Below are positions 23,002-62,056 of a DNA stretch of 64,000 nt, piece by piece. The position numbers and the translations under genes are program-made. The notes beneath the pieces were generated by a model, which did no database searches, had not been told where the DNA came from, and saw only the letters and a program-made list of their open reading frames with translations. The stretch comes from a bacterium. GTDB taxonomy: Bacteria; UBA8248. Each line of letters begins with the position of its first letter. Within the stretch, counting starts at the first letter, position 1. The DNA lies in NCBI GenBank assembly GCA_965219955.1, contig OZ244799.1:3904001-3968000 (forward strand), read 5' to 3'.

Positions 23002-23367
23002 TCATCCCCCGCCTGCGAGCGTTTCTCGCGGCGGCCAGTCTCCGGATCGGTTCTTGAAAGAAAGATAGACGAGAACGTCAGATCCTAAGTTTCTAAGCTC
23101 ATGCTCCACGCCCAGGGGGATGTGGACCACCTCGCCCGCGCCCAAGGTCTTTTCTTCTTCTCCGACGCGGAACCAGCCCGTGCCCTCTAAAATATGGATG
23201 ATTTGCTCGCAGCCGTGGCTGTGCGGGCGTGTCGCCTTGCCGGGCGGCTGCTCCTGGCGCGTGAGGGTGGTGAACGCGCCGAGGATCATGCTGCCCTCTG
23301 AATCCGTGGTGGAGACGATGTTGCGCTTTTTCAGGTCGTCCCAGCGGTAGAAGGGCATGGCGCGCAT
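23002..23367 (-). CDS. Cupin domain protein
   Basis: HSHGCEQ...G motif 1; IPLGVEHELRN motif 2. Confidence 0.85.
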   Translation of the reverse strand: MRAMPFYRWDDLKKRNIVSTTDSEGSMILGAFTTLTRQEQPPGKATRPHSHGCEQIIHILEGTGWFRVGEEEKTLGAGEVVHIPLGVEHELRNLGSDVLVYLSFKNRSGDWPPRETLAGGG

Positions 23368-23391
23368 CCTCTCATTTAGAGCGGCGGGCGT

Positions 23392-24435
23392 TCAGCCCTG
23401 GACGGATTCGGCGATTCTCGCCTGGAGAAGCTCGTAGTTCGGGCGGCCCATCTCTACCTCGCCGTCGTCTATCATCCGCGCGATCTCTGTCACCGCGTCG
23501 TTGTAGGGAGTGGGGATGCCGAGCTCTCTCGCCCTGCGCGAGACGAGGCCGTTGATGTATTCCATCTCGCTCTTCCGGCCCTTGATGTGGTCCTGAATCG
23601 GGGCGGTGCGCGAACGGGGCCCCACGTGTTCGAGCAGCGTCTTCATGGCCGTGACGAGCACCTGATCGTCAGAACCCGCGAAATCATCCGATGAGAGGCC
23701 GAACACCGGCTCCACCCCGTAGCCCAGGGCTTCGCCCACCGCCATCGCCTCTTTTCCGAGTCCGACCGAAAGCTCGATGACGCCCGGAAGCTCCTTCGTT
23801 TCGGCGTTCTTGAGGCCCAGCAGGCCGAAGGGCCCCATCGTCATGCAGTTGGCGATGAGCTTCGTCCACTTGGTGCCCTCGATGTTGGGCGTGACTTCGG
23901 TGACGGCGACGTGCGCGAAGATGTCGCGAACCTCTTCCGCGCGCGGGGTGACCGAGCCGTCCAGTTCTCCCACGGCGAACCAGGTGCCCTTGCGGGGCGT
24001 GTTACGCTGGATGAAGCCGGGCGTGAAAATCTCCGCCGAGAGTTCCACGCAGCAGCCCACCACGCGCTCGCGCCCGATGACCGACGCGATCGTATCGTTG
24101 TTCATGCTGTTCTGCGCCCCGACGAATATGCCGTCGCTCTTCAGGTAGGGCTTGATGAGTTCGCACATCCAGCGGGTGTCGTAGGATTTAACGATGAGCA
24201 GGACGATGTCGAAAGTCGTCCGGAGCGAGGCCAGCTCGCACAGATGGTGCGCGCGCAAAGGCGGCGTTTTGAGGTCCAGGTCCGGCATCTGGACGTGGAG
24301 ACCCTTCTCGCGCATCACCTCCACGTGCTCGGGCCATTGGTCGATGACGGTGACGTCGAGACCTGCGTCGGTCAGGTCGGCGGACACGCTGCCGCCGATG
24401 GCGCCTGCGCCGAGAACGGCGATCTTCTTGTTCAT
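23392..24435 (-). CDS. Ketopantoate reductase family protein
   Basis: GAGAIGG, VKSYDT, QN, KWTKL, SEMEYING. Confidence 0.88.
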   Translation of the reverse strand: MNKKIAVLGAGAIGGSVSADLTDAGLDVTVIDQWPEHVEVMREKGLHVQMPDLDLKTPPLRAHHLCELASLRTTFDIVLLIVKSYDTRWMCELIKPYLKSDGIFVGAQNSMNNDTIASVIGRERVVGCCVELSAEIFTPGFIQRNTPRKGTWFAVGELDGSVTPRAEEVRDIFAHVAVTEVTPNIEGTKWTKLIANCMTMGPFGLLGLKNAETKELPGVIELSVGLGKEAMAVGEALGYGVEPVFGLSSDDFAGSDDQVLVTAMKTLLEHVGPRSRTAPIQDHIKGRKSEMEYINGLVSRRARELGIPTPYNDAVTEIARMIDDGEVEMGRPNYELLQARIAESVQG

Positions 24436-39546: not shown

Positions 39547-39825
39547 ATGCCGAAATTATCCCTTAACCGCTTGATCCACGACATTCAGCCCCTCGAGAAG
39601 CGCGAGGCGTTCCTGCGCGACCCGCTCGAATTCGCGCGCGGCTATGACGTCACCGACGCGGAGCTTGCGGCGGTTCGCGATTCCGACGTGCGCGCCCTGT
39701 GGAGCTTCGGCGCGAACCCCTACCTGCTGCGGGTGCTGCAGTTTCGCGCAGGGATATCGGATGAAGATTTCCGGGCGGCGCTTGCAGGCCTCTCCTATCC
39801 GCGTCCCGACGAGGGGGAGATATAG
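39547..39825 (+). CDS. LigA-like small subunit of extradiol dioxygenase
   Basis: 92 aa, REAFLRDP...GANPYLL; ends 1 nt before the LigB-like gene. Confidence 0.7.
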   Translation: MPKLSLNRLIHDIQPLEKREAFLRDPLEFARGYDVTDAELAAVRDSDVRALWSFGANPYLLRVLQFRAGISDEDFRAALAGLSYPRPDEGEI

Positions 39826-39826
39826 G

Positions 39827-40654
39827 ATGGCTGAGATCGTCGGCGCCTTCGCGGCCAGCCATACGCCTCTTTTTTTGCTGAGGCACGATGCGCCCGCGGA
39901 AGACGTGAGGGAAGAGGTCTTCTCCTCTTACCGCAGGATGGCCCGCGAGGTTGTCGAAAGGGGCGCCGAGGTGATGGTCCTGCTGGGGAACGATCACTTG
40001 CACGCCTTCTCCATGGACAGATACCCCGCCCTGGCCATCGGCGCAGGTCCCCGCTTCGGCCCGGTGGAGACCGAGCCTTTCCTCCCGCCTGACATATACG
40101 AAGGCGCCGAGGGGCTGGCATCCCACCTTACGCGGGGGCTGCTGGCGAGCGGCTTCGACCCCCTGTTGTGCCGGGAACTGGCGCTCGATCATTCCTTCGT
40201 CTCGCCCCTGGCGCTCATGGGCGATACGGGGCTGCCTATCGTGCCGATCCTCCAGAATACAGTGGCGCCGCCCCTGCCGCCCGCCGCGCGCTCATACGAA
40301 CTCGGCGTCTCGCTGAGAAGATTGATTGAGAGCTATGCGGGACACGAGCGCGTGGCCGTGGTGGCGACGGGCGCGCCCTCGCACTGGATCGGAACCCCCG
40401 AGCAGGGCGACATCGACGAGGCGTGGGACCGCGAGGTGATCGACTTGCTTTGCCGCGCCGACGCGAAGGGTCTCTCCGCGTGGCCCCAGGCCAAGATCGA
40501 TGAGGGCGGAAACGGGGGCAACGAGATCAGGACATGGATATCCGCCGCCGCTCTGAGCGGAGACACCGAAGCGAATCTTTGGATCTACCGGATAGAGCCC
40601 CTGTGGTTTCTGGGGGTGACGGTTATCGAGTGGCCCATCGGGCCTGCTCTTTGA
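39827..40654 (+). CDS. LigB/MhpB-type class III extradiol dioxygenase
   Basis: ASHTP, NDH, LDHSF, ATGAPSHW, NEIRTW. Confidence 0.88.
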   Translation: MAEIVGAFAASHTPLFLLRHDAPAEDVREEVFSSYRRMAREVVERGAEVMVLLGNDHLHAFSMDRYPALAIGAGPRFGPVETEPFLPPDIYEGAEGLASHLTRGLLASGFDPLLCRELALDHSFVSPLALMGDTGLPIVPILQNTVAPPLPPAARSYELGVSLRRLIESYAGHERVAVVATGAPSHWIGTPEQGDIDEAWDREVIDLLCRADAKGLSAWPQAKIDEGGNGGNEIRTWISAAALSGDTEANLWIYRIEPLWFLGVTVIEWPIGPAL

Positions 40655-40678
40655 GCGATTACGAAGGAGGATGAAGGA

Positions 40679-41668
40679 ATGCCGAAAGCGGTTCTTTTTG
40701 ACGAGTTGGGCGGCGCGGACGTGCTCCGCGTGGCGGAAGTTCCTGATCTGGAGCCGGGGGAGGGCGAGGTGCGGGTCGCCGTGGAGACGATGGGGCTCAA
40801 CCGGGCGGAAGTTCTCTTCCGGGAGGGCCGCTACCACGACAAGCCGGTGTTCCCCTCCCGCATCGGCTACGAGGCCTGCGGGGCGATAGACGCTGTGGGT
40901 CCGGGCGTGGAAGGTCTGGCGGTGGGCGACCGAGTGAGTACGATTCCCTGTTTCTCGATGGTGGAGCACGGGGTGTGCGGCGAGCAGGCGGTCGTTCCGG
41001 CGTTCGCCGCCGCCCGCTATCCCGATAACCTCTCGCCCGCCGAGGCCGCGTCCATCTGGATGCCGTATTTCACCGCATACGGCGCGCTCATCGAATTCGG
41101 AGGATTGAAGGAGGGTGACACCGCCCTGCTCACGGCGGCGAGCAGCAGCGTGGGCGTCGCGGCTGTTCAGATAGCGAAATCAGTGGGCGCGCGTGTCATC
41201 GCCACGACGCGCGGCGCGGGAAAGAAGGATTTCATCCTGGGTGTGGGAGCCGATCACGTAGTCGTGACGGATGAGGAGGATTTGGCCGAGCGGGTGATGG
41301 ATATTACGGGAGGCACGGGCGCCGACGTCGTCTTCGACCCCGTCGTCGGGTCCACGCTGCCGAAAGTTGCCGATGCGACCGCGTACCAGGGCTCGATTTT
41401 CCTCTACGGCCGCCTCTCGCCCGAGGATGCGGTGATACCCCTGTTCCCGGCTCTCCGGAAAGGGCTGACCTTCAGGTGCTACACGATCATGGAGATCACG
41501 AAGTTCCCGGAAAAAAGGGAAAAGGGGAAGAAGTTCATCTACGAGGGCCTGGAATCAGGCGCGCTCAGGCCCATCGTCGCGAAGACGTTCCCGCTCGATG
41601 AAGCGGTGGGGGCGTACAAGTACATGGAATCGAACCAGCAGATGGGCAAAATCGTCGTCGAGGCGTAA
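40679..41668 (+). CDS. Zn-independent MDR oxidoreductase (quinone reductase-like)
   Basis: GLNRAE, GYEACG, AASSSVG, QMGKIVV. Confidence 0.9.
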   Translation: MPKAVLFDELGGADVLRVAEVPDLEPGEGEVRVAVETMGLNRAEVLFREGRYHDKPVFPSRIGYEACGAIDAVGPGVEGLAVGDRVSTIPCFSMVEHGVCGEQAVVPAFAAARYPDNLSPAEAASIWMPYFTAYGALIEFGGLKEGDTALLTAASSSVGVAAVQIAKSVGARVIATTRGAGKKDFILGVGADHVVVTDEEDLAERVMDITGGTGADVVFDPVVGSTLPKVADATAYQGSIFLYGRLSPEDAVIPLFPALRKGLTFRCYTIMEITKFPEKREKGKKFIYEGLESGALRPIVAKTFPLDEAVGAYKYMESNQQMGKIVVEA

Positions 41669-52727: not shown

Positions 52728-53588
52728 ATGTCGTATTCCAAAGTCGTCGAACTCGCGGAGGGAAAGGTTTACGCCCTCCACAACACGTTCCCGCTGGACG
52801 GGCGCATCAGCGCATACCCCATCAGCGCGCGCGGGCACAGCGTCTCGAACTGCTATCTGCTGAAAGAAGACGAGGGCGCGCTCCTGCTCGATACGGGCTA
52901 TGTCGTTCACGAATCCGAAATCCTGTCGCAGATGGAATCCCTCATCGAGCCCGATACGCCCCTGCACCTGCTTCCCCTGCGCATCAACGAGTTCATGTCG
53001 GTGGGCAACGCCATGGCGATCGCCAAACGCTTCAACGTGGTGGAGTGCCTCGCCCCGGTGCCGGAGATCAACGAGTGGCTCGAGTTCGAAGCGCTCGAAC
53101 CCGGCGGAAGCAACGGCAACCCCGTCCTTCCCACCACGATACTGAAGCCGCTTCATCCCATCGAAATCGGCGATAGATACATCGAGGTGATGAACGCGCC
53201 GATCCGCCTCATCAGCACCCGCTGGATTTACGATGCGGCCACGCGCACCCTGTTCACCTCGGACATGTTCAGCCACCTTTGGGCGGAGGGGGCGGAAGGC
53301 CCCTGGCTGCTGGATGAAGACGGGGTGACGACGACTTCCTTCGTTCGCTCGTTCCTGCTGAACACGCGCTACTGGTGGCTCGAGGGCGCGAGGACGGATT
53401 CCATCCGCAAAGGAATCACGGAAGTCTTCGAGCGCTACGAGATCGAGACCATCGCTCCGGGCTATGGCGCGGTGCTGCGCGGACGCCATCTGGTGGAGCG
53501 GCAATTTGCCGTGCTAGATGAGGTTCTGGCGGGTCTCGACCGGGGCGTCGTCAAGCCGAACTACGTCGCGCTCGGTTTAGAGAGATAA
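52728..53588 (+). CDS. Metallo-beta-lactamase-fold protein (FprA/ODP-like), metal ligands degenerate
   Basis: NCYLL, LLLDTG, LFTSDMF, IAPGYG; HxExDH replaced by RINEFMS. Confidence 0.7.
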   Translation: MSYSKVVELAEGKVYALHNTFPLDGRISAYPISARGHSVSNCYLLKEDEGALLLDTGYVVHESEILSQMESLIEPDTPLHLLPLRINEFMSVGNAMAIAKRFNVVECLAPVPEINEWLEFEALEPGGSNGNPVLPTTILKPLHPIEIGDRYIEVMNAPIRLISTRWIYDAATRTLFTSDMFSHLWAEGAEGPWLLDEDGVTTTSFVRSFLLNTRYWWLEGARTDSIRKGITEVFERYEIETIAPGYGAVLRGRHLVERQFAVLDEVLAGLDRGVVKPNYVALGLER

Positions 53589-53594
53589 CAGCGC

Positions 53595-54356
53595 ATGAGC
53601 CATCCCCTGCCTCGAGAAGTCTCGCCCGGCGTCTTCTGGCTCGGCGACTGCCTCGTGCAGCACTCGCAGGGCAAAATCTATCACTCCTACAACGCGGCCT
53701 TCCTCGTCATCGGCTCAGAAGCCTCCATGCTGATAGAAACGGGACACCCCAAGGATTTCCCCATCATCGAGCGCCAGATGAAGGACATTCTGTCCCGCGG
53801 CGGAGGGCCGCTCAAGCACCTGTTCCTGACCCATCAGGAGACCCCCCACTCGGGAGGTCTGGGCCGCGTGCTCGACAGGTACCCCGACCTCACCATCCAC
53901 GGAGACATGTGCGACTACCATCTCGCGTTTCCCCAGCACGAAGGCCGCTTCAAGGAGATGCGGGTGGGAGACGCCATCGACCTGGGCGATACGAAGTTCA
54001 TGGCCGTGGAGCCGGTGATCCGGGACTTGAGGAGTTCGCTCTGGGGGTTCGAGACCAAAGGGCGCGTGCTGTTTCCCGGAGACGGCTTCGCCTACAGCCA
54101 CTACCATACGGACGGTCATTGCGGGATGTTCGCCGAAGAGGCCACGTCTCTCGATCTGGTCGACGTGCTGGGCGTATTCGCCGAGCGCGCCCTGTACTGG
54201 ACCACCTTCACCGACATGAACGTCTACGCCGACAAGCTCGAAGAGTTGATGGATGAACTAGACGTCGAAATCGTCGCGCCGACGCACGGCCTGCCGATAC
54301 GGGACATCGCGCAAACGATGCCGAAAGTCCGGGAGGGCCTTGTCCGGGGCGACTGA
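53595..54356 (+). CDS. Metallo-beta-lactamase-fold protein (FprA/ODP-like, no flavodoxin domain)
   Basis: YNAAFLV, THQETPH, FPGDGF, APTHG. Confidence 0.78.
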   Translation: MSHPLPREVSPGVFWLGDCLVQHSQGKIYHSYNAAFLVIGSEASMLIETGHPKDFPIIERQMKDILSRGGGPLKHLFLTHQETPHSGGLGRVLDRYPDLTIHGDMCDYHLAFPQHEGRFKEMRVGDAIDLGDTKFMAVEPVIRDLRSSLWGFETKGRVLFPGDGFAYSHYHTDGHCGMFAEEATSLDLVDVLGVFAERALYWTTFTDMNVYADKLEELMDELDVEIVAPTHGLPIRDIAQTMPKVREGLVRGD

Positions 54357-54422: not shown

Positions 54423-54769
54423 GGGGTTGTTGAAAAAGCCCTGATTCCGTGATTCAGAGTAAGTAGCCGACCGAAGAGGGAAGAAACGTCACGATCCCCT
54501 TGTAGAGCACCCAACAACCACTCCCCCCTTGAGGGTCTGGCTTCCCGAGGGGAAAGCCAGACGATGAAGCCGAGCGGTTTGTGCGAAGGCTGAATCGGTG
54601 GGGGGTAAAATACGTTTTATCGCCATTCCGAATTATACCCCCCATCGAATCGCTTTCGGGCTTACGCCCTTAGCTCTTCGACTCCCCCTCAAGGGGGGAG
54701 TGATTTTTCTCTCTCGTCGGTCGGTTACATATAACAAATCCAGAGTTCCGGGGCTTTTTCAACAACCCC
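54423..54769. mobile_element. Composite element: same arms as 28578-28920, enclosing element A (copy 5, 54518-54703) in reverse orientation
   Basis: GGGGTTGTTGAAAAAGCC...GGCTTTTTCAACAACCCC. Confidence 0.78.
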
Positions 54770-54787
54770 GCCCTGGCCAGGCTTGAC

Positions 54788-55186
54788 TTAAACGTCCTCC
54801 ACCAGCTCCCAGAGCGTACCCATCGTGCTCTTGGGCTTGATGAAGGCGATGAGGTGCCCGCCGAAGCCGGGTCTTGATTTCTCATCAATCAACTCGAAGC
54901 CCTGCGCCTTCATCTCGGCCAGCACGCCGTCGATGTTCTTCACGTCGAAGGCGACGTGGTGGAGGCCCTCGCCGCGCTCCTCGATGAACTTGGCGAGAGG
55001 CGAATCCTGTTTGATGGGCGAGATGGGCTCGATGAGGTCGCCGCCCAGGTCCAGCATGGCCAGATCGGTCGCGCCGTCTGCGGAGGTCTCCCGCGCGAGC
55101 AGCTTCGCGCCCATGCCCTCGTACAAAGCGATGGCGGCGTCCATGTCCTTCACCGCGACGCCGATGTGATGAAATTTGTTGAACAT
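54788..55186 (-). CDS. VOC family protein, methylmalonyl-CoA epimerase-like
   Basis: HHIGVAV, GEGLHHVAF, IAFIKPKSTMGTLWELVE. Confidence 0.88.
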   Translation of the reverse strand: MFNKFHHIGVAVKDMDAAIALYEGMGAKLLARETSADGATDLAMLDLGGDLIEPISPIKQDSPLAKFIEERGEGLHHVAFDVKNIDGVLAEMKAQGFELIDEKSRPGFGGHLIAFIKPKSTMGTLWELVEDV

Positions 55187-55381
55187 ATCCGTATTTCCTC
55201 CTTGTCAGGCGCGGCGAGGGATAATATCCGCCCCGCCGCATCGTTGTTTCGAAGATGTTTAGCAGGCTTGGGGGGATTCCACAATCGAACCTGCCCGGGA
55301 AACTATACTCGGCGCGGCGTTTGTCGTATCCTGCGCGCATCAACGAAATTATGCGAACCACACATTCATGAGGAGATATCC

Positions 55382-55942
55382 ATGACAGGTCCTGTTGATG
55401 GACACAGCACCTCCACCGTGCCGGGCGAGCGCGTCATCGACAAGCCCGAACTCCCCAAAGGGGGGCTGTATACCGACAACACCGTCCACACCGAGATGCA
55501 CGAGGGCTCCCTGCAGCTCAAGCGCGGCACGGCGGGAGATTTCGAGATTTTCTGCGACGAGGGCGCGCACATCGGCGGCACGGCGCAATACCCCACGCCG
55601 ATGGCCTATCTCGCCATGGCGACGGGGTTCTGACTGCTCACCCAGGTGTCGCGGTACGCGCACATGATGAAAATGGATATCAAGGGGGCGAGCGTTTCGG
55701 TGCGGTTCCGGAAACTGCTGGGCGGCTCGGTGCTCAAGGGCACCGTGTTCAACAAGTGGGAGGCCGTGGACACGCATCTCAAAGTCGAATCGGACGAGCC
55801 CGCGGACAGACTAGCCCACCTCATCAAGAACGCCAAGAACGGCTGCTTCGCCGAAGCCCTGATCACCGAGCCGGTGCCGCTCCACTCCACCGTGGAGGTG
55901 AACGGCGAACCCTTCGAGATAGAGGGCGTGACGGCGGATTAA
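55382..55942 (+). CDS. OsmC-like protein, predicted selenoprotein (Sec at codon 84, TGA 55631-55633), 186 aa
   Basis: DEG...GG...PTP...ATGF-TGA-LLTQ continues in frame to AKNGCF; GAGGAG RBS; hairpin 12 nt after the TGA. Confidence 0.82.
55646..55663 (+). promoter_or_regulatory. Putative bacterial SECIS element
   Basis: GTG(T)CGC-GGTAC-GCGCAC hairpin with bulged U and G-led loop. Confidence 0.65.
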
Positions 55943-55964
55943 CCCCCATACCTGGAGTTTTTAC

Positions 55965-56414
55965 ATGGAATACTTCCACGCATCTGAAGACATCGCCTTC
56001 GGCTCGCAGCCCGAGCCTGCGGATCTGGAATCCCTCGCCGCAAGAGGCGTCAGGACCATCATCAACACGCGCTTTCCCGAGGAAGACCAGGGCGATCTGC
56101 CGCCCGAGCGCGCAAAGGCGGAGGCCGAGGCACTGGGGATGCGCTACGTGAACGTCCCCGTCTCGCCCGCCGAGTTCAGCCCCGCCTCGCTGGCCGAGGT
56201 GAGCCGCGCTCTCTCTGAAGCCAGGGCCCACGGCCCGACGTTCGTCCACTGAAAAGCCACGGGGCGGGCCGGGATTTGCTCGCTGAACCATCTGGCTGAT
56301 GAGAACGAGTGGACGGCGCGGGAGATGGAGGGAGCCGCCGACGCCACCGGATTCGACTGGCGCGCCGCGCCGCTCGCGCCCAAGTACCGCGAGTTCTTCG
56401 CAAGGAGACCCTGA
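55965..56414 (+). CDS. DUF442/PTP-like sulfurtransferase, predicted selenoprotein (Sec at codon 96, TGA 56250-56252), 149 aa
   Basis: GSQP, GVRTIINTR..EE, ALGMRYVNVPV, PTFVH-TGA-KATGRA matching H-C-x4-R; frame stays open 53 more codons. Confidence 0.8.
56264..56283 (+). promoter_or_regulatory. Putative bacterial SECIS element
   Basis: GCGGGC-CGGGATTT-GCTCGC hairpin starting 11 nt after the TGA. Confidence 0.6.
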
Positions 56415-56436
56415 GCAGGCGCAACGGGGGCGCCGC

Positions 56437-57495
56437 TCAGGAAACCGTCATTCGCGTCTCGGTATTTTCTTGTTCCTCCAATGGAAAATGGCAGGCGGTT
56501 TCGATTCCGCCGGGATGAGGAGTCAGTCCGGGCATTTCCTGTCGACACATCTCCTCTCTGCGGGGACAGCGGGAATAAAACCGGCAAACATGCGAGGAAG
56601 GATCGATGGGACTCATCGGCTCGCCGGTCAATCGCACCCGCTCGGTGCGCTCGGTCGTGTTGATGGCGGGTATGGCGGAGAGGAGCGCCCGGGTGTAGGG
56701 ATGGCGCGGGCGGCGCAGGATTTCCCGGGTAGGGCCGGACTCCACGATTTTGCCGAGATACATCACCAGCACCCTTTGGCAGAGCAGCCGGACGACGTTC
56801 AGGTCATGGGAGACGAACAGGTAGCTCATCCCGAGGCGGTTTTTCAGATCTTCGAGAAGATGCAGGATGACCGCCTGAACCGAAACGTCCAGGGCCGAGG
56901 TGGGCTCATCCAGAATGAGGAGCGAGGGCTCGAGCGCTATCGCTCGTGCGATACCGACCCTCGCCTTCTGGCCGCCTGAGAGTTGGTGCGGATAACGGGT
57001 CAGAAATTCGGGGGCGAGGCCCACGAGGTTGCACAGTTCCTCCACGCGCTTTCTGAGCTGAGGGCCGCTGCGCATTCCCCCCAGGCGCAAGAGCGGATCG
57101 GCAACCACCCGATAAGTGGTGAATCCGGGATTCAGGCTCTCCGTGGGGTCCTGGAACACCATCTGGATTTTCCGGCGCTTCTCGCCCTGGATGAAGCGGC
57201 TCGCCGGAATCCCCCCGATGTTCCTGCCCTCGAAGGCGATGGCGCCTGACGTCGGGTCCTGCAGACGGGCGATCAAACGGGCCAGCGTGGACTTCCCGCA
57301 GCCGGACTCGCCCACGAGGCCGACGCTCTCTCCCGCTTCGATCGTGAAAGTCACGCCGTCCACGGCGTGAAGATACCCCGCTTCGTCTCGTTCTTCGGCC
57401 CCCATGCCCCGCAGCGAATTCCAGACCCTTCCAAGCGCCCCGCTTCTGCGGATCGGGAACTTCTTCAGGAGGTCGACGGTTTGGAGCAATGCCAT
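56437..57495 (-). CDS. Peptide/nickel ABC ATP-binding protein (DppF/OppF-like)
   Basis: GESGCGKS, LSGGQKAR, HPYTRALL, C-terminal Cys cluster. Confidence 0.93.
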   Translation of the reverse strand: MALLQTVDLLKKFPIRRSGALGRVWNSLRGMGAEERDEAGYLHAVDGVTFTIEAGESVGLVGESGCGKSTLARLIARLQDPTSGAIAFEGRNIGGIPASRFIQGEKRRKIQMVFQDPTESLNPGFTTYRVVADPLLRLGGMRSGPQLRKRVEELCNLVGLAPEFLTRYPHQLSGGQKARVGIARAIALEPSLLILDEPTSALDVSVQAVILHLLEDLKNRLGMSYLFVSHDLNVVRLLCQRVLVMYLGKIVESGPTREILRRPRHPYTRALLSAIPAINTTERTERVRLTGEPMSPIDPSSHVCRFYSRCPRREEMCRQEMPGLTPHPGGIETACHFPLEEQENTETRMTVS

Positions 57496-58466
57496 CAGAG
57501 AGGGTACCGGCAGGCGACGAGATGGCCCGCTTCGGTCTCCAGACGGGGAAGCGGCGGTTCGAGGCAATCCTCTTTGAGGTGTTCGCACCGCTCACTGTAG
57601 CGGCAAGCCGGGAGTTGCGCGCGCAGATCCGGCAGGTTGCCGGGAATCGAAGAAAGCTCGGCGAGGTCTCTGCTCGCATTCGGCGTGGCGCCGATGAGTT
57701 TCGCCGTGTAGGGATGCCGCGGACGCATGAACAGGTGTTCGGTATCGGCCACTTCGACCACGTGTCCCGAGTGCATGACGATTATCCTGTCGCAGTATTC
57801 CGAGGCGAGGCCGAGGTCGTGGGTGATGAGGATCGTTCCCATGTTTCTCTCACGCGCCGCGTCCTTGATGAGGTCCATGATCACGGCCTGAGTCGTGACG
57901 TCCAGACCCGTTACGGGTTCGTCCGCTATCAGGAGCCAGGGGTTGGAGGAGATGGCGACTGCAATCATTACGCGCTGGCACATGCCGCCGGAGAGTTCGA
58001 ACGGATAGGCGCGATAGCGCTTCTCGGGATCCGGGATATGGACCTGGTTGAGCAGATCGAGTGCTCGCTCGCGAATCTGCCGGCCACGGAAGCTGCTGTG
58101 GCGATAGATGACGTCCTCGAGTTGTCTGCCGATGGTCCGGATGGGGTTCAGCGCCGTTCTCGGGCTCTGGAAGATCATAGCGAGCTCACGTCCCCGCATT
58201 TCCTGCAGTTCTTGCCCGGACTTTTCGAGCAGAGAGATGCCCCCGAAAACAATCCGGCCCGAGGTGATTTTCGCCGCCGGATCGGAAATCCCCATGATGG
58301 CGTAAGACATCACGGATTTTCCCGAGCCACTCTCGCCGACGACGCCGACAGTCTGCCCTTTTTCGATCTCGAAACTTACGTTCTCGAGCGCCTTGACGAC
58401 GCCGGTTCGGGTGCGGAATTCGAGCGAGAGATCATCGACGGCGAGAAGAGGGTTCCGGGATTCCAT
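57495..58466 (-). CDS. Peptide/nickel ABC ATP-binding protein (DppD/OppD-like)
   Basis: GESGSGKS, LSGGMCQR, HPYT; real start MESRNP. Confidence 0.93.
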   Translation of the reverse strand: MESRNPLLAVDDLSLEFRTRTGVVKALENVSFEIEKGQTVGVVGESGSGKSVMSYAIMGISDPAAKITSGRIVFGGISLLEKSGQELQEMRGRELAMIFQSPRTALNPIRTIGRQLEDVIYRHSSFRGRQIRERALDLLNQVHIPDPEKRYRAYPFELSGGMCQRVMIAVAISSNPWLLIADEPVTGLDVTTQAVIMDLIKDAARERNMGTILITHDLGLASEYCDRIIVMHSGHVVEVADTEHLFMRPRHPYTAKLIGATPNASRDLAELSSIPGNLPDLRAQLPACRYSERCEHLKEDCLEPPLPRLETEAGHLVACRYPL

Positions 58467-59311
58467 CACGTCCTCATTCTCGGGTCGATCAGATCGCGGA
58501 GGCCGTCGCCCAGGAGGTTGAAGCACAGCACGGCGAGCATCAGGGCGGCTCCGGGAAAGATGGCCAGCCACCACTCGCCCGAGACGATGAACTTGGCTCC
58601 CTCGGCCACCATGATCCCCCATTCGGGAGTCGGGGGCCGGACGCCCAGGCCGATGAAGGAGAGTCCCGCCGCGTTCAATATGGCGTAACCCATGTTCAGC
58701 GATATCTGAACCATCATCGGCGGCATGATGTTGGGTCCCAGATGAAAAAGAAGAATCCGCCCGTGTCCATTTCCCGAAAGGCGCGCCGCCTCCACGAACC
58801 CTGCTTCGCGGCGTGAATTCGCCTCGGCCCGCGCCACGCGGGCGTAGAAGGGAAAGTTGATGACGGCCGTGGTGTAGACGATGTTCTCTATCGTATTGCC
58901 CAGGGCCGATACGATGCCCATCGCCAGCACGAAAAGGGGAAACGCCATGATGGTGTCGGTGAGACGACCGATGAGCTTGTCCGTCGCGCCCCCAAAGTAG
59001 CCTGCGCAAACGCCGGCGACGCTCCCCGCGACGAAGGAGAGCGAAACGGCCGCCACGGATATCGCGAGGTCGAGCCGCGTGGCCGTGATCACGCGGCTGA
59101 AAACGTCTCGCCCCAGATTGTCGGTGCCGAACGGGTGCGCCCAAGAAGGCGGCCTGAGAGCGTTGGCCGTGTCGCTGGCGAGGGGGTCGTAGGGCGCGAG
59201 CCAGGGGCCGAACAAACCGAGAGCCATCAACAAGAAGAAAAGAACGAATGAAAAACACGTGACGGGATTCTCCCCCATCACATAGCGCAGGTGCCGGAGA
59301 TGGGCGCTCAC
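58466..59311 (-). CDS. Peptide ABC permease (DppC/OppC-like)
   Basis: HPFGTDNLGRD, FVEAARLSG, PEWG, NLLGDGLRD; GTG start inferred. Confidence 0.93.
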   Translation of the reverse strand: MSAHLRHLRYVMGENPVTCFSFVLFFLLMALGLFGPWLAPYDPLASDTANALRPPSWAHPFGTDNLGRDVFSRVITATRLDLAISVAAVSLSFVAGSVAGVCAGYFGGATDKLIGRLTDTIMAFPLFVLAMGIVSALGNTIENIVYTTAVINFPFYARVARAEANSRREAGFVEAARLSGNGHGRILLFHLGPNIMPPMMVQISLNMGYAILNAAGLSFIGLGVRPPTPEWGIMVAEGAKFIVSGEWWLAIFPGAALMLAVLCFNLLGDGLRDLIDPRMRT

Positions 59312-59313
59312 GT

Positions 59314-60342
59314 TCAGCCTTCCAGCCCGATACGCGGGTCGACCACCGTATAGAGGATGTCGATCGCCAGGTTCAGGAGCACGTACATCAACGCCATGGC
59401 CAGCACGAAGCCCTGCACCGCGGCGTAGTCCGAGGCGATGAGGGCCTCGATGGCGAACGAGCCGATGCCCGGCCAGGCGAAGACCTTCTCCACCAGAACG
59501 TTCGCCCCCAGCAGGAAAGAGAACACCATGCCGAGCGTGGTGAGAACGGGGAGAATGGCGTTTTGAAAAGCATAGACCCACAGCACCGTCTTGCGCGATA
59601 AGCCGCTCGCCCGCGCCGTGCGAACGAAGTCGCTCGAGAGAACCCCCAGCATCGCGGCTCTCGTCATCCGCGCGAGCGGGGCCAGGGCGAAAATGCCCAA
59701 TGTCGAGGCGGGGAGAACCATCTGGGAAAATGATGCGCGAAAGACCTCCAAATCACCCGCGACGAGACTGTCGATCAGGTAGAAACCCGTGACGTGATCA
59801 GGAGCGATGTGGATGATGCTCAAGCGTCCGAGGGGAGCGGGCGAGAGCCCCAGCAGAAAATAGAAGATATAGACGAGGAACAACCCGGTGAAGAAGGTAG
59901 GCAGTGAAACTCCGATGGTCACGACGAGACGGCAGAGGTGATCGACGAGTGAGTTGGGCCGCGTGGCCGCCAGTATGCCCAGAGGGATGGCGATGGCGAC
60001 GGCGAGAAACAGGCCCATGAGCGTGAGCTCGAGCGAAGCCGGAAGGCGGGTGGCGAGTTCTTCCATGACGGGCTGGCCCGTACTGATGGATTTGCCCAAG
60101 TCTCCGCGTGAGAGATTCTGAAGGTAGACCCAGAACTGCTCGGGCCAGCTCTTGTCGAGTCCCAGCGAGGCGCGTATCTCGGCGATGGATTTCTCATCCG
60201 CCGCAGGCCCGGCGAAGAATACCGCCGGGTCGCCCGGCAGGGCCCGCGTCAGAATGAACGTCACCACGATAATGCCCATCACGACCGGCGCCGCCTGCAG
60301 GAGGCGCCGGCCGATCAGGAACAGGGAATCGCCTTTCATCAC
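59314..60342 (-). CDS. Peptide ABC permease (DppB/OppB-like)
   Basis: LPGDP, GDLGKS, FVRTARASGL, EKVFAWPGIG, DPRI. Confidence 0.94.
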   Translation of the reverse strand: MMKGDSLFLIGRRLLQAAPVVMGIIVVTFILTRALPGDPAVFFAGPAADEKSIAEIRASLGLDKSWPEQFWVYLQNLSRGDLGKSISTGQPVMEELATRLPASLELTLMGLFLAVAIAIPLGILAATRPNSLVDHLCRLVVTIGVSLPTFFTGLFLVYIFYFLLGLSPAPLGRLSIIHIAPDHVTGFYLIDSLVAGDLEVFRASFSQMVLPASTLGIFALAPLARMTRAAMLGVLSSDFVRTARASGLSRKTVLWVYAFQNAILPVLTTLGMVFSFLLGANVLVEKVFAWPGIGSFAIEALIASDYAAVQGFVLAMALMYVLLNLAIDILYTVVDPRIGLEG

Positions 60343-60388
60343 ATCGTCCCCCCCTTCAAAGGACGCGCTGCATTGCTGCGAACCGGCT

Positions 60389-62056
60389 TCAGGCCTGTTT
60401 CGGTAATTTTTTGAACGGCCTCACGTCGAGTTGACGGTGGAACCAGTATTCGTAACCCTCGATATGCTTTTGCATGGCGACATCGAGATAGGGCTGCCAT
60501 AGCGGGATGAGGGGAACGTCCTCAAAAGCGATTTTGATGAACGCCTTGACGCGCTCCGCGTAGCCGGGGCTGCCTACCGGCATGTGCAGGGTCTCGTCCA
60601 CGAGTTTGTTCAGCTTCGGGTTGTCGTAGTTCATCGAATTGAACAGGCGCTTGGGCTGGTAGGCCCAGAAGAAATAATACTCGGGATAATTCAGCCAGCC
60701 CCCGAAATTCTTGAGGTGCATCGGGAGCTTCTTCTCCACGAGCGCCTTCGTCCGCCAGCCCGAGCCGGGGATCTTGTCGAGCTTCGCTTCAATCCCCACC
60801 TTGCCGAGCCCCTCCTGGATGAGGAGCGCCGTCGGCTCCGTCCAGTAGGCGAGCCCGAGGTTGAACGACAGCGTGACCTTGAAGCCCTCCGCGTAGCCGG
60901 CCTCCTTGAGCAGAGCCTTCGCCTTGTCCTGGTTGGTGTCGTAGGGGAAGGGCTGGGGCCACAGCGTGCCGGCGGGATCGGCGGATTTCGCTCCCCAAAG
61001 CGGCAGGCCGCGCTCATAGGCCGCCGCCTTGAATATCTTCTCATAGGGCATGGCGTAGGCCATCGCCTGGCGGACCCGCACGTCGGCGAAGGGCTTGAAG
61101 TTCAGGTTGAGACCTACGGCGTGGATGCAGTTCTCGATGGGGACTCCCGCGATCTTGAGCTTCTTGTTGCTCGTGAGTTCCTTGGTGTCCTTCGGCGGGA
61201 GATCGAGAGAGACATCGGCGTCTCCCCGAAGCAGGAGAGCGCGGCGCGTGGAGGCGGACGCCACCTCGCGGACGATCACCCGCTTCACGCCGGGCAGGGG
61301 ACCCGACTTCCACTCATCGTTTCGAATGTAGACTGTCTGCTGGCCGGGCTTCCAACGCCCCAGTTTGAAGGCCCCGCCACCTTGCGGGTTTTTGTGCAGA
61401 TACCCGGTCGCCCACGGGTCGTTCTTCGTGGCTTTGGCCTTGGCGGCTACCGAATTGATGATGAGGGGCACGGGAACGCCCAGATCGGGCAGCGTGAGCT
61501 TGCTCTTGCGGATAAAGTTGATCTTGAAGGTTTGCTTATCCACGGCGACGAACTGCTCTGGTTTGACGAGCGAGCCCGCCTTCATCTGCACGGCCGGAAA
61601 ACCACCGAGCGAGACCGCGCGGTCGAAAGACCATTTCACGTCATGGGCGGTGACGGGTTTTCCGTCGTGGAACCTGGCGTCTTTGCGAATCTTGAAGGTG
61701 ACGGACATGCCGTCGGGCGCAAAGTTCCAGGACTCGGCCAGTTCCGGTTCGATCTTCTGATAGTCGTACATGACGTTGCCGTCGGGCAGCTTCTTGCGCC
61801 CGTAAGTCACGAGGCGGTCGTAGATGTTCACGGCGACCTGGTAGCTCGGCCGGTTGGTGCCCTTCCTGTGGATGTCCATGCTGTTGGGGCCGTTTCCGAT
61901 CACGACCACGAGCGTGTCGCGGCCGGCGGCAGCCTCGGCGGGCAGGTATTTCAGGAGCGGCAACAGCCCCGCCCCGGCGGCGGCGCCTGCGCCGATTTTC
62001 AGAAAATCACGGCGTTTGAACTGCTTGTTATCCGGTACGTCCCTGTTCATGCTCAT
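60389..62056 (-). CDS. Family 5 substrate-binding protein with Tat signal
   Basis: KRRDFLK Tat motif, PELAESW, FHDGKPVTAHDVKWS, VRVRQAM. Confidence 0.93.
   Translation of the reverse strand: MSMNRDVPDNKQFKRRDFLKIGAGAAAGAGLLPLLKYLPAEAAAGRDTLVVVIGNGPNSMDIHRKGTNRPSYQVAVNIYDRLVTYGRKKLPDGNVMYDYQKIEPELAESWNFAPDGMSVTFKIRKDARFHDGKPVTAHDVKWSFDRAVSLGGFPAVQMKAGSLVKPEQFVAVDKQTFKINFIRKSKLTLPDLGVPVPLIINSVAAKAKATKNDPWATGYLHKNPQGGGAFKLGRWKPGQQTVYIRNDEWKSGPLPGVKRVIVREVASASTRRALLLRGDADVSLDLPPKDTKELTSNKKLKIAGVPIENCIHAVGLNLNFKPFADVRVRQAMAYAMPYEKIFKAAAYERGLPLWGAKSADPAGTLWPQPFPYDTNQDKAKALLKEAGYAEGFKVTLSFNLGLAYWTEPTALLIQEGLGKVGIEAKLDKIPGSGWRTKALVEKKLPMHLKNFGGWLNYPEYYFFWAYQPKRLFNSMNYDNPKLNKLVDETLHMPVGSPGYAERVKAFIKIAFEDVPLIPLWQPYLDVAMQKHIEGYEYWFHRQLDVRPFKKLPKQA

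Follow-up and report, generated by a model that had tools for sequence, protein, structure and literature searches.

Two adjacent genes, here called gene A and gene B, were analysed in a 64,000-nucleotide stretch of bacterial DNA (the window; positions 3,904,001 to 3,968,000 of contig OZ244799.1, assembly GCA_965219955.1, GTDB lineage UBA8248). Judged from sequence, both are true selenoprotein genes, in which an in-frame UGA is read as selenocysteine (Sec, U): gene A is a member of a known OsmC-related selenoprotein family, and gene B appears to represent an unlisted Sec subfamily of DUF442-type proteins with a protein tyrosine phosphatase (PTP) fold. The explanation we favour, at a probability of about 0.55, is that the two genes form a short co-expressed unit whose products act side by side and are not obligate partners. 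The family of gene A is already known, and gene B is the useful result. The genome is 4.28 Mb in a single contig (C1 below) and belongs to an uncultured bacterium labelled Nitrospinota, close relatives of which have been found in sponge and marine metagenomes.

Selenocysteine decoding

Both genes lie on the plus strand, separated by an intergenic gap of 22 nt (55943-55964, by direct sequence reading). An earlier description made by a model from the letters alone (the sequence-only reading) had reported two UGA genes 22 nt apart, each with a ribosome-binding site and a SECIS-like (selenocysteine insertion sequence) hairpin, and had taken one for an OsmC-like oxidoreductase and the other for a persulfide carrier, adding that standard annotation would show only fragments. 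Its coordinates and motifs are correct, both ribosome-binding sites are present (Table 1), and the two assignments, the hairpins and the fragmentation are borne out by the data below. The selenocysteine genes on which it depended are also present: selB (390 bits) adjoins selA (578 bits), selD (333 bits) carries one TGA itself, and a tRNA-Sec was found at 75.9 bits, which ARAGORN reports as tRNA-SeC with anticodon tca. Six Sec genes were verified in this genome, namely A, its paralogues A2 and A3, B, its paralogue B2, and SelD. Genes A and B are called Sec genes because this machinery is complete, because homologues carry Cys at the TGA columns, and because the SECIS elements are conserved.

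Gene A

Gene A has Sec at residue 84 in the motif GF-U-LLT (UxxT) and a second conserved Cys at residue 155 (GCF). It matches the NCBIfam model NF041052, 'OsmC-related (seleno)protein', at 165.1 bits (cut-off 95) and Pfam OsmC at 2.6e-12 (47.5 bits), and its monomer model has a predicted local distance difference test score (pLDDT) of 82. The nearest solved relative, PDB 3cje, has Cys at both the Sec84 and the Cys155 columns, so gene A is read as a putative two-residue OsmC-type redox protein with Sec as the first residue. All 52 distinct members of the A family that were compared have TGA at the codon 84 column, followed by many invariant columns.

An OsmC-like selenoprotein family with UxxT was first described from the Sargasso Sea in 2005 (PMC1088965) and is still listed in Table 1 of a 2026 review of prokaryotic selenoproteins (PMC13188914). 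Gene A shares with this family the UxxT motif, the second conserved Cys and the downstream hairpin, and differs in nothing essential; it is set apart here as one of three Sec paralogues and by its position upstream of another selenoprotein gene. Three copies exceed the cut-off in this genome (the others being A2, C1:374525-375070, and A3, C1:3127549-3128067), and members above the cut-off occur in 48 of 51 genomes across the phylum. Each of the 150 A-family matches listed has one TGA, and there are 193 further matches.

Tandem pairs of OsmC-like Sec genes were seen in four relatives (G034:C69:5634-6653, G061:C177:1109-2143, G028:C4:50771-51812 and G035:C46:2971-3966), and the last of these genomes, G035, has 17 A-family matches. 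At locus L012 (C1:3127549-3129379), A3 is followed after about 110 nt by a 400-residue AIR-synthase-superfamily gene that scores 96 bits against HypE, 92 against SelD and 79 against ThiL, all below the cut-offs; this gene could be a selenium- or sulfur-activating partner of A3.

Gene B

The motif of gene B is H-U96-KATG-R101-AG-I-C105-SL. It matches PF04273 (BLH_phosphatase/DUF442) at 48 bits (cut-off 26.1) and TIGR01244, 'sulfur transferase', at 47.9 bits, below the cut-off of 85.85. Modelled by AlphaFold from 16 relatives, gene B reaches a pLDDT of 93.7, and the DUF442 structures 3gxh and 2f46 head the fold matches of the model (Foldseek probability 1.00, template modelling score 0.72-0.80), ahead of dual-specificity phosphatases (DSP). 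A PDB sequence search also returned 2f46 (E 7e-10), with the loop U-KATG-R aligned to C-RTGT-R.

Relatives of gene B were found in 33 of 61 related genomes (57 matches). A single TGA is present in 52 of these matches, at identities as low as 39%, and two TGAs in one; a further three, of which one is partial and two are distant, lack a TGA, and a weak match carries TAA. In a scan of species-representative genomes, 50 B loci were found and all 50 have TGA at the same codon; where named, their taxa are Nitrospinota, Nitrospinaceae and Candidatus Tectomicrobia, and many are called only 'bacterium'. Downstream of the UGA, residues R101, A102, G103, C105, S106 and W132 are invariant in these loci. 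One B2-type copy (G010:C5:285649-286089) has two in-frame TGAs and is either a gene with a second Sec or a decaying copy.

Cys forms of gene B also exist. The metagenomic protein P0034 (162 aa, about 50% identical) reads FVHCKAIGRAG against FVHUKATGRAG in gene B, and all 16 aligned Cys relatives have H-C and, five residues further, an Arg that mostly precedes Ala-Gly. Searched with a profile, 1.84 billion representatives yielded 1261 relatives at E<=1e-10; among the matches listed (150), most are about 150 aa long. A Pfam domain scan of the 43 matches listed that exceed 175 aa found rhodanese domains in two, metallo-beta-lactamase (MBL)-fold domains in three and an AhpC/TSA domain in one; an OsmC domain was found in none of these 43. 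The protein with the AhpC/TSA domain, P0153 (metagenome, 265 aa), joins this peroxiredoxin domain to one resembling DUF442, whose loop reads HC-x4-R. The peroxiredoxin match begins at profile position 45, just past the site of the peroxidatic residue, so the protein is cut at the N terminus.

Public entries for gene B are fragments because gene callers stop at residue 95: 51 of 58 database relatives are exactly 95 aa long, and one is named 'sulfur transferase domain-containing protein'. The families PF04273, TIGR01244 and DUF442 do not occur among the 119 prokaryotic selenoprotein families in Table 1 of the 2026 review (PMC13188914), NCBIfam release 20 has no dedicated model for the Sec form, and no earlier report of a DUF442-type selenoprotein was found in a literature check that left Haft & Tolstoy 2025 and the BSepDB family table outside.

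The best reading of gene B, from fold and motif, is a transferase of sulfane sulfur, or of selenium, that depends on Sec. In Blh, the DUF442 domain has been tested as a sulfurtransferase that moves sulfane sulfur from thiosulfate to cyanide or glutathione, and it is coupled to a persulfide dioxygenase (PMC5823870). Gene B shares the PTP fold and the C-x4-R loop with Blh DUF442 (bigR operon of Xylella and Agrobacterium), 2f46 (Neisseria NMA1982) and 3gxh, and its relatives, like Blh-type enzymes, are fused to MBL-fold and rhodanese domains. It differs in having Sec and not Cys as the nucleophile, in being a stand-alone protein of 149 aa, in scoring below the TIGR01244 cut-off, in having an activity that is predicted only, and in an extra invariant Cys nine residues past the Sec. 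The nearest functional analogues in the review are the rhodanese-like selenoproteins (forms 1-5), which are likewise of sulfurtransferase type with Sec at the persulfide-carrying position, but whose fold is rhodanese and not PTP/DSP and whose motifs are UxxS, UxxG and CxU (PMC13188914).

SECIS hairpins

In both genes a SECIS-like hairpin starts 11-15 nt downstream of the UGA: GUG[U]CGCG-GUA-CGCGCAC in gene A, with the bulged U in brackets, and GGCGGGC and GCUCGCU around the loop CGGGAUUU in gene B. Each thus has what marks a bacterial Sec gene, a hairpin shortly past the UGA with a G in the apical loop. Folded as single sequences they are not better than shuffles (z -0.66 for A and -0.65 for B), and an Rfam scan of 54500-57000 gave only two chance-level matches and no family for either hairpin. 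Their significance rests on conservation among relatives and not on single-sequence energy. In gene B, 40 of 40 distinct sequences retain the loop and all seven pairs of the stem GGCGRGC/GCUCGCU, the sole change being G.U to A-U (17 of the 40); in gene A, 36 of 36 sequences preserve the core CGCG/CGCG and its GUA loop, and two of these have a compensatory change from C-G to A-U.

Codon usage points the same way: in both genes, synonymous change is suppressed at the stem-loop codons and nowhere else. Codons 101-107 of gene B show no synonymous variation except ATA for ATT in one of 43 Ile codons, and the stem-loop codons are GGG in 49/49, GCC in 50/50, GGG in 50/50, TGC in 50/50 and TCG in 50/50 sequences, compared with 2-6 codons and typically 0.7-2.3 bits of entropy at most other well-conserved residues. 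Codons 87-93 of gene A are nearly free of synonymous change. The SECIS element of gene B lies inside the codons of the active-site loop and shows clearly how RNA and protein can constrain the same bases.

Distribution and transcription of the pair

The adjacency of A and B is confined to one genus, and the pairing is recent. Among the 23 genomes of the genus, this one included, A is directly upstream of B in 20; of the remaining three, one has a 697-nt spacer, one (G015) has its nearest A-family gene 6.9 kb away, and one is cut by a contig end. The two genes are at most 700 nt apart in 21 of the 23, and B protein identity across the genus is 82-95%. In the contig scan, 16 of 20 A-adjacent loci have a 21-25 nt spacer with GGAG, and the other four have spacers of 71-697 nt that contain GC-rich palindromes. 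Outside the genus, 29 loci whose B is at most 68% identical were examined over 4 kb, and an A homologue was found at none of them (a few of these contigs are short).

The more common neighbour of gene B is different. In 28 of the 50 B loci (L063-L112), B follows a Transglut_core2 (PF13369, SirB1-like) gene beside ilvD, a context that spans Nitrospinota and Tectomicrobia metagenome-assembled genomes (MAGs) and that is also found at the paralogue B2 in this genome (C1:2051740-2052183; locus L062, C1:2051740-2053049). In a maximum-likelihood tree, on which the A-adjacent label needs two changes, the A-adjacent clade is nested within genes of the Transglut_core2 context, which marks that context as the older one; it is also the more widespread synteny of gene B. 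In this genome A2, A3 and B2 are unpaired, with A2 and A3 next to other neighbours. Recurrence in independent lineages, or a fusion to OsmC, would be expected of a functionally coupled operon; neither is seen among the surveyed loci and the 43 long B homologues.

Transcription was assessed from assembled RNA-library contigs of a sponge metatranscriptome. A 2115-nt contig spans 55352-56429 unbroken, with 46 differing letters over 1078 positions, and a second run of that sponge study gave two contigs that cross 55879-55993. Runs X17, X19 and X20 lack cover over parts of 55200-56500, a gap that is not interpretable. A and B are probably a short two-gene unit on one transcript.

Interpretation

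In the explanation that we favour, SelB with Sec-tRNA(Sec) would read each UGA as Sec, guided by the small downstream hairpin. We infer that gene A would be an OsmC-type two-residue peroxidase or oxidoreductase with Sec84 (UxxT) in place of the peroxidatic Cys and Cys155 as the likely resolving residue, and that gene B would be a PTP-fold DUF442-type sulfurtransferase with Sec96 of the C-x4-R loop as the nucleophile. Sulfane sulfur (or selenium) would be bound to Sec96 in a Se-S adduct, which the subfamily-specific Cys105 may resolve. Shared expression of the two genes might serve in defence against oxidants or reactive sulfur, and the pairing would have arisen once in the genus, through a B copy that became placed downstream of A.

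Several observations weigh against parts of this explanation. The 3' arm of the SECIS stem also codes for the Cys105-Ser-Leu segment, whose invariance is therefore ambiguous and may reflect RNA constraint, catalytic constraint, or both. The score of gene B below the TIGR01244 cut-off means that its activity may differ from that of Blh. RNA-library contigs may contain DNA; ours fit co-transcription and leave a single transcript unproven. The view that the products are not partners is weakened by the 16 tight GGAG spacers, which favour real co-expression and possibly more, and by the P0153 fusion, which hints that coupling between a peroxidase and DUF442 can exist.

The last two points lead to the joint function that the sequence-only reading had proposed, a direct Sec-based relay that makes the two one pathway, B either transferring sulfane sulfur or selenium to or from Sec84/Cys155 of A or providing this site with reducing equivalents. 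The shared strand, the 22-nt gap, the separate ribosome-binding site of B, the tight spacer in most loci of the genus, the contigs across the A-B junction and P0153 are all consistent with it, and selenoprotein genes that share an operon are often in one pathway (PMC13188914, section 9). We nevertheless consider such a relay quite unlikely. The proposal had been tied to adjacency in other genomes and to co-transcription. Adjacency holds in close kin but not beyond the genus, as the 29 distant loci show, and co-transcription is supported by contigs spanning both genes but not proven as one transcript. The nesting of the A-adjacent clade among genes with the older Transglut_core2 neighbour, the unpaired paralogues A2, A3 and B2, the four long spacers with palindromes, the distant A-family gene in G015 and the lack of an OsmC domain in the 43 long B homologues among the matches listed all argue against it. 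A bolder version, in which gene B founds an unlisted selenoprotein family as the first PTP/DSP-fold enzyme with a Sec nucleophile, was recruited in this genus behind an OsmC-type selenoperoxidase into a two-selenoprotein module, and either restores A or hands sulfane sulfur or selenium on to A, is in our view a long shot.

The pair might instead be incidental, a duplicated B copy having landed behind A with no shared function and any co-regulation being accidental. MAGs labelled Nitrospinota or Nitrospinaceae (GTDB UBA8248) have 48-54 selenoprotein genes each (PMC13326102, Table 2), and about 50 Sec genes among about 4000 would give roughly 0.3-0.6 chance adjacent pairs per genome, an estimate that borrows its selenoprotein count from those published MAGs and not from this genome. 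If the Sec count here resembles theirs, a chance adjacent pair is not unlikely, although only the six selenoproteins named above were verified here. The youth of the adjacency, the unrelated flanking genes (methylmalonyl-CoA epimerase and an oligopeptide ABC transporter) and the multiplicity of the A family, with three copies that pass the cut-off in this genome, as many as 17 matches in a single relative and tandem A-A pairs elsewhere, fit an accident of position. The short spacer and ribosome-binding site maintained across a genus with 82-95% B protein identity do not, nor do RNA contigs that cover both genes, and we regard mere coincidence as somewhat unlikely. That the TGAs are true stops, leaving broken genes or four small ones, is the view of gene callers and of the 95-aa database entries, and is scarcely credible: both TGAs keep their codon in every A member and B locus compared, protein conservation continues downstream, Cys stands in both Sec columns of homologues, the hairpins are kept among relatives, and the genome has the full Sec machinery.

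Selenoprotein pairs of established operons generally turn up in several lineages or take part in one known reaction; the A-B pair is confined to one genus and is not known to share a reaction. In having two tandem Sec genes on one strand it resembles grdA-grdB, prdB-prdC, Prx/SelW-like, Prx-like/AhpD-like, SAO and Tso operons (PMC13188914). The pair itself is best regarded as an ordinary consequence of a selenoprotein-rich genome and should not be taken as a new pathway from sequence. Gene B is a conserved, lineage-wide Sec form of a putative DUF442/PTP-fold sulfurtransferase that callers cut at residue 95, and adding its family would improve the annotation of Nitrospinota and Tectomicrobia MAGs. 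B and P0034 are a natural Sec/Cys pair for asking why selenium replaces a persulfide-carrying nucleophile.

Locus features and neighbouring genes

Table 1. Features of the A-B locus (window positions).
Feature	Position	Strand	Evidence
Shine-Dalgarno-like GAGGAG of gene A	55370..55375	+	6 nt ahead of ATG 55382
Gene A, OsmC-related selenoprotein, 186 aa	55382..55942	+	ATG 55382, TAA 55940-42; translation, NF041052, Pfam OsmC
UGA, predicted selenocysteine, codon 84 of gene A	55631..55633	+	TGA in 52/52 distinct members; Cys in 3cje
Gene A SECIS-like hairpin, core CGCG/CGCG, loop GUA, bulged U	55646..55663	+	core pairs conserved 36/36
Shine-Dalgarno-like GGAG of gene B	55954..55957	+	7 nt ahead of ATG 55965
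Gene B, DUF442/PTP-fold sulfurtransferase-like selenoprotein, 149 aa	55965..56414	+	ATG 55965, stop TGA 56412-14; PF04273, fold
UGA, predicted selenocysteine, codon 96 of gene B	56250..56252	+	TGA in 50/50 loci; Cys in P0034
Gene B SECIS-like hairpin, 7-bp stem, 8-nt loop CGGGAUUU	56263..56284	+	all 7 pairs conserved 40/40
GC-rich hairpin, junction of gene B and convergent ABC ATPase gene	56410..56441		-24 kcal/mol, z -2.8
ABC ATPase gene, convergent with gene B	56437-57588	minus	

The sequence-only reading had closed the unit with the GC-rich hairpin that follows gene B. The hairpin is real, with equal folding in only 2 of 200 shuffles. It has no U tract, a terminator scan made no call there (one unrelated site was called elsewhere), and its sequence is common to few relatives only, most being without it. 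It overlaps the stop codons of gene B and of the convergent ABC ATPase gene. A sigma-70 promoter scan found no promoter, against 0.4 expected.

Upstream of gene A are two MBL-fold genes (52728-54356, plus strand), followed by a divergent methylmalonyl-CoA epimerase gene (54788-55186); downstream, an oligopeptide-type ABC transporter operon (56437-62056) converges on gene B. No partner for A or B is evident among these flanking genes. The second MBL-fold gene contains the motif HQETPH, weakly matches flavorubredoxin NorV (44 bits) and the ODP family, and looks like a di-iron, flavodiiron-type domain lacking the flavodoxin part.

A read-through filter applied to the window returned 38 candidates, A and B among them, and a Pfam scan of the ten further candidates with the best coding signal found no domain crossing the TGA. 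At 39644-41668 (plus strand) a LigB-type dioxygenase is followed by a zinc alcohol dehydrogenase, and at 23002-24435 (minus strand) ApbA/PanE is followed by a cupin, in each case in the same frame with only a TGA between; with no Pfam domain across the TGA, both were rejected as selenoproteins and look like ordinary neighbours.

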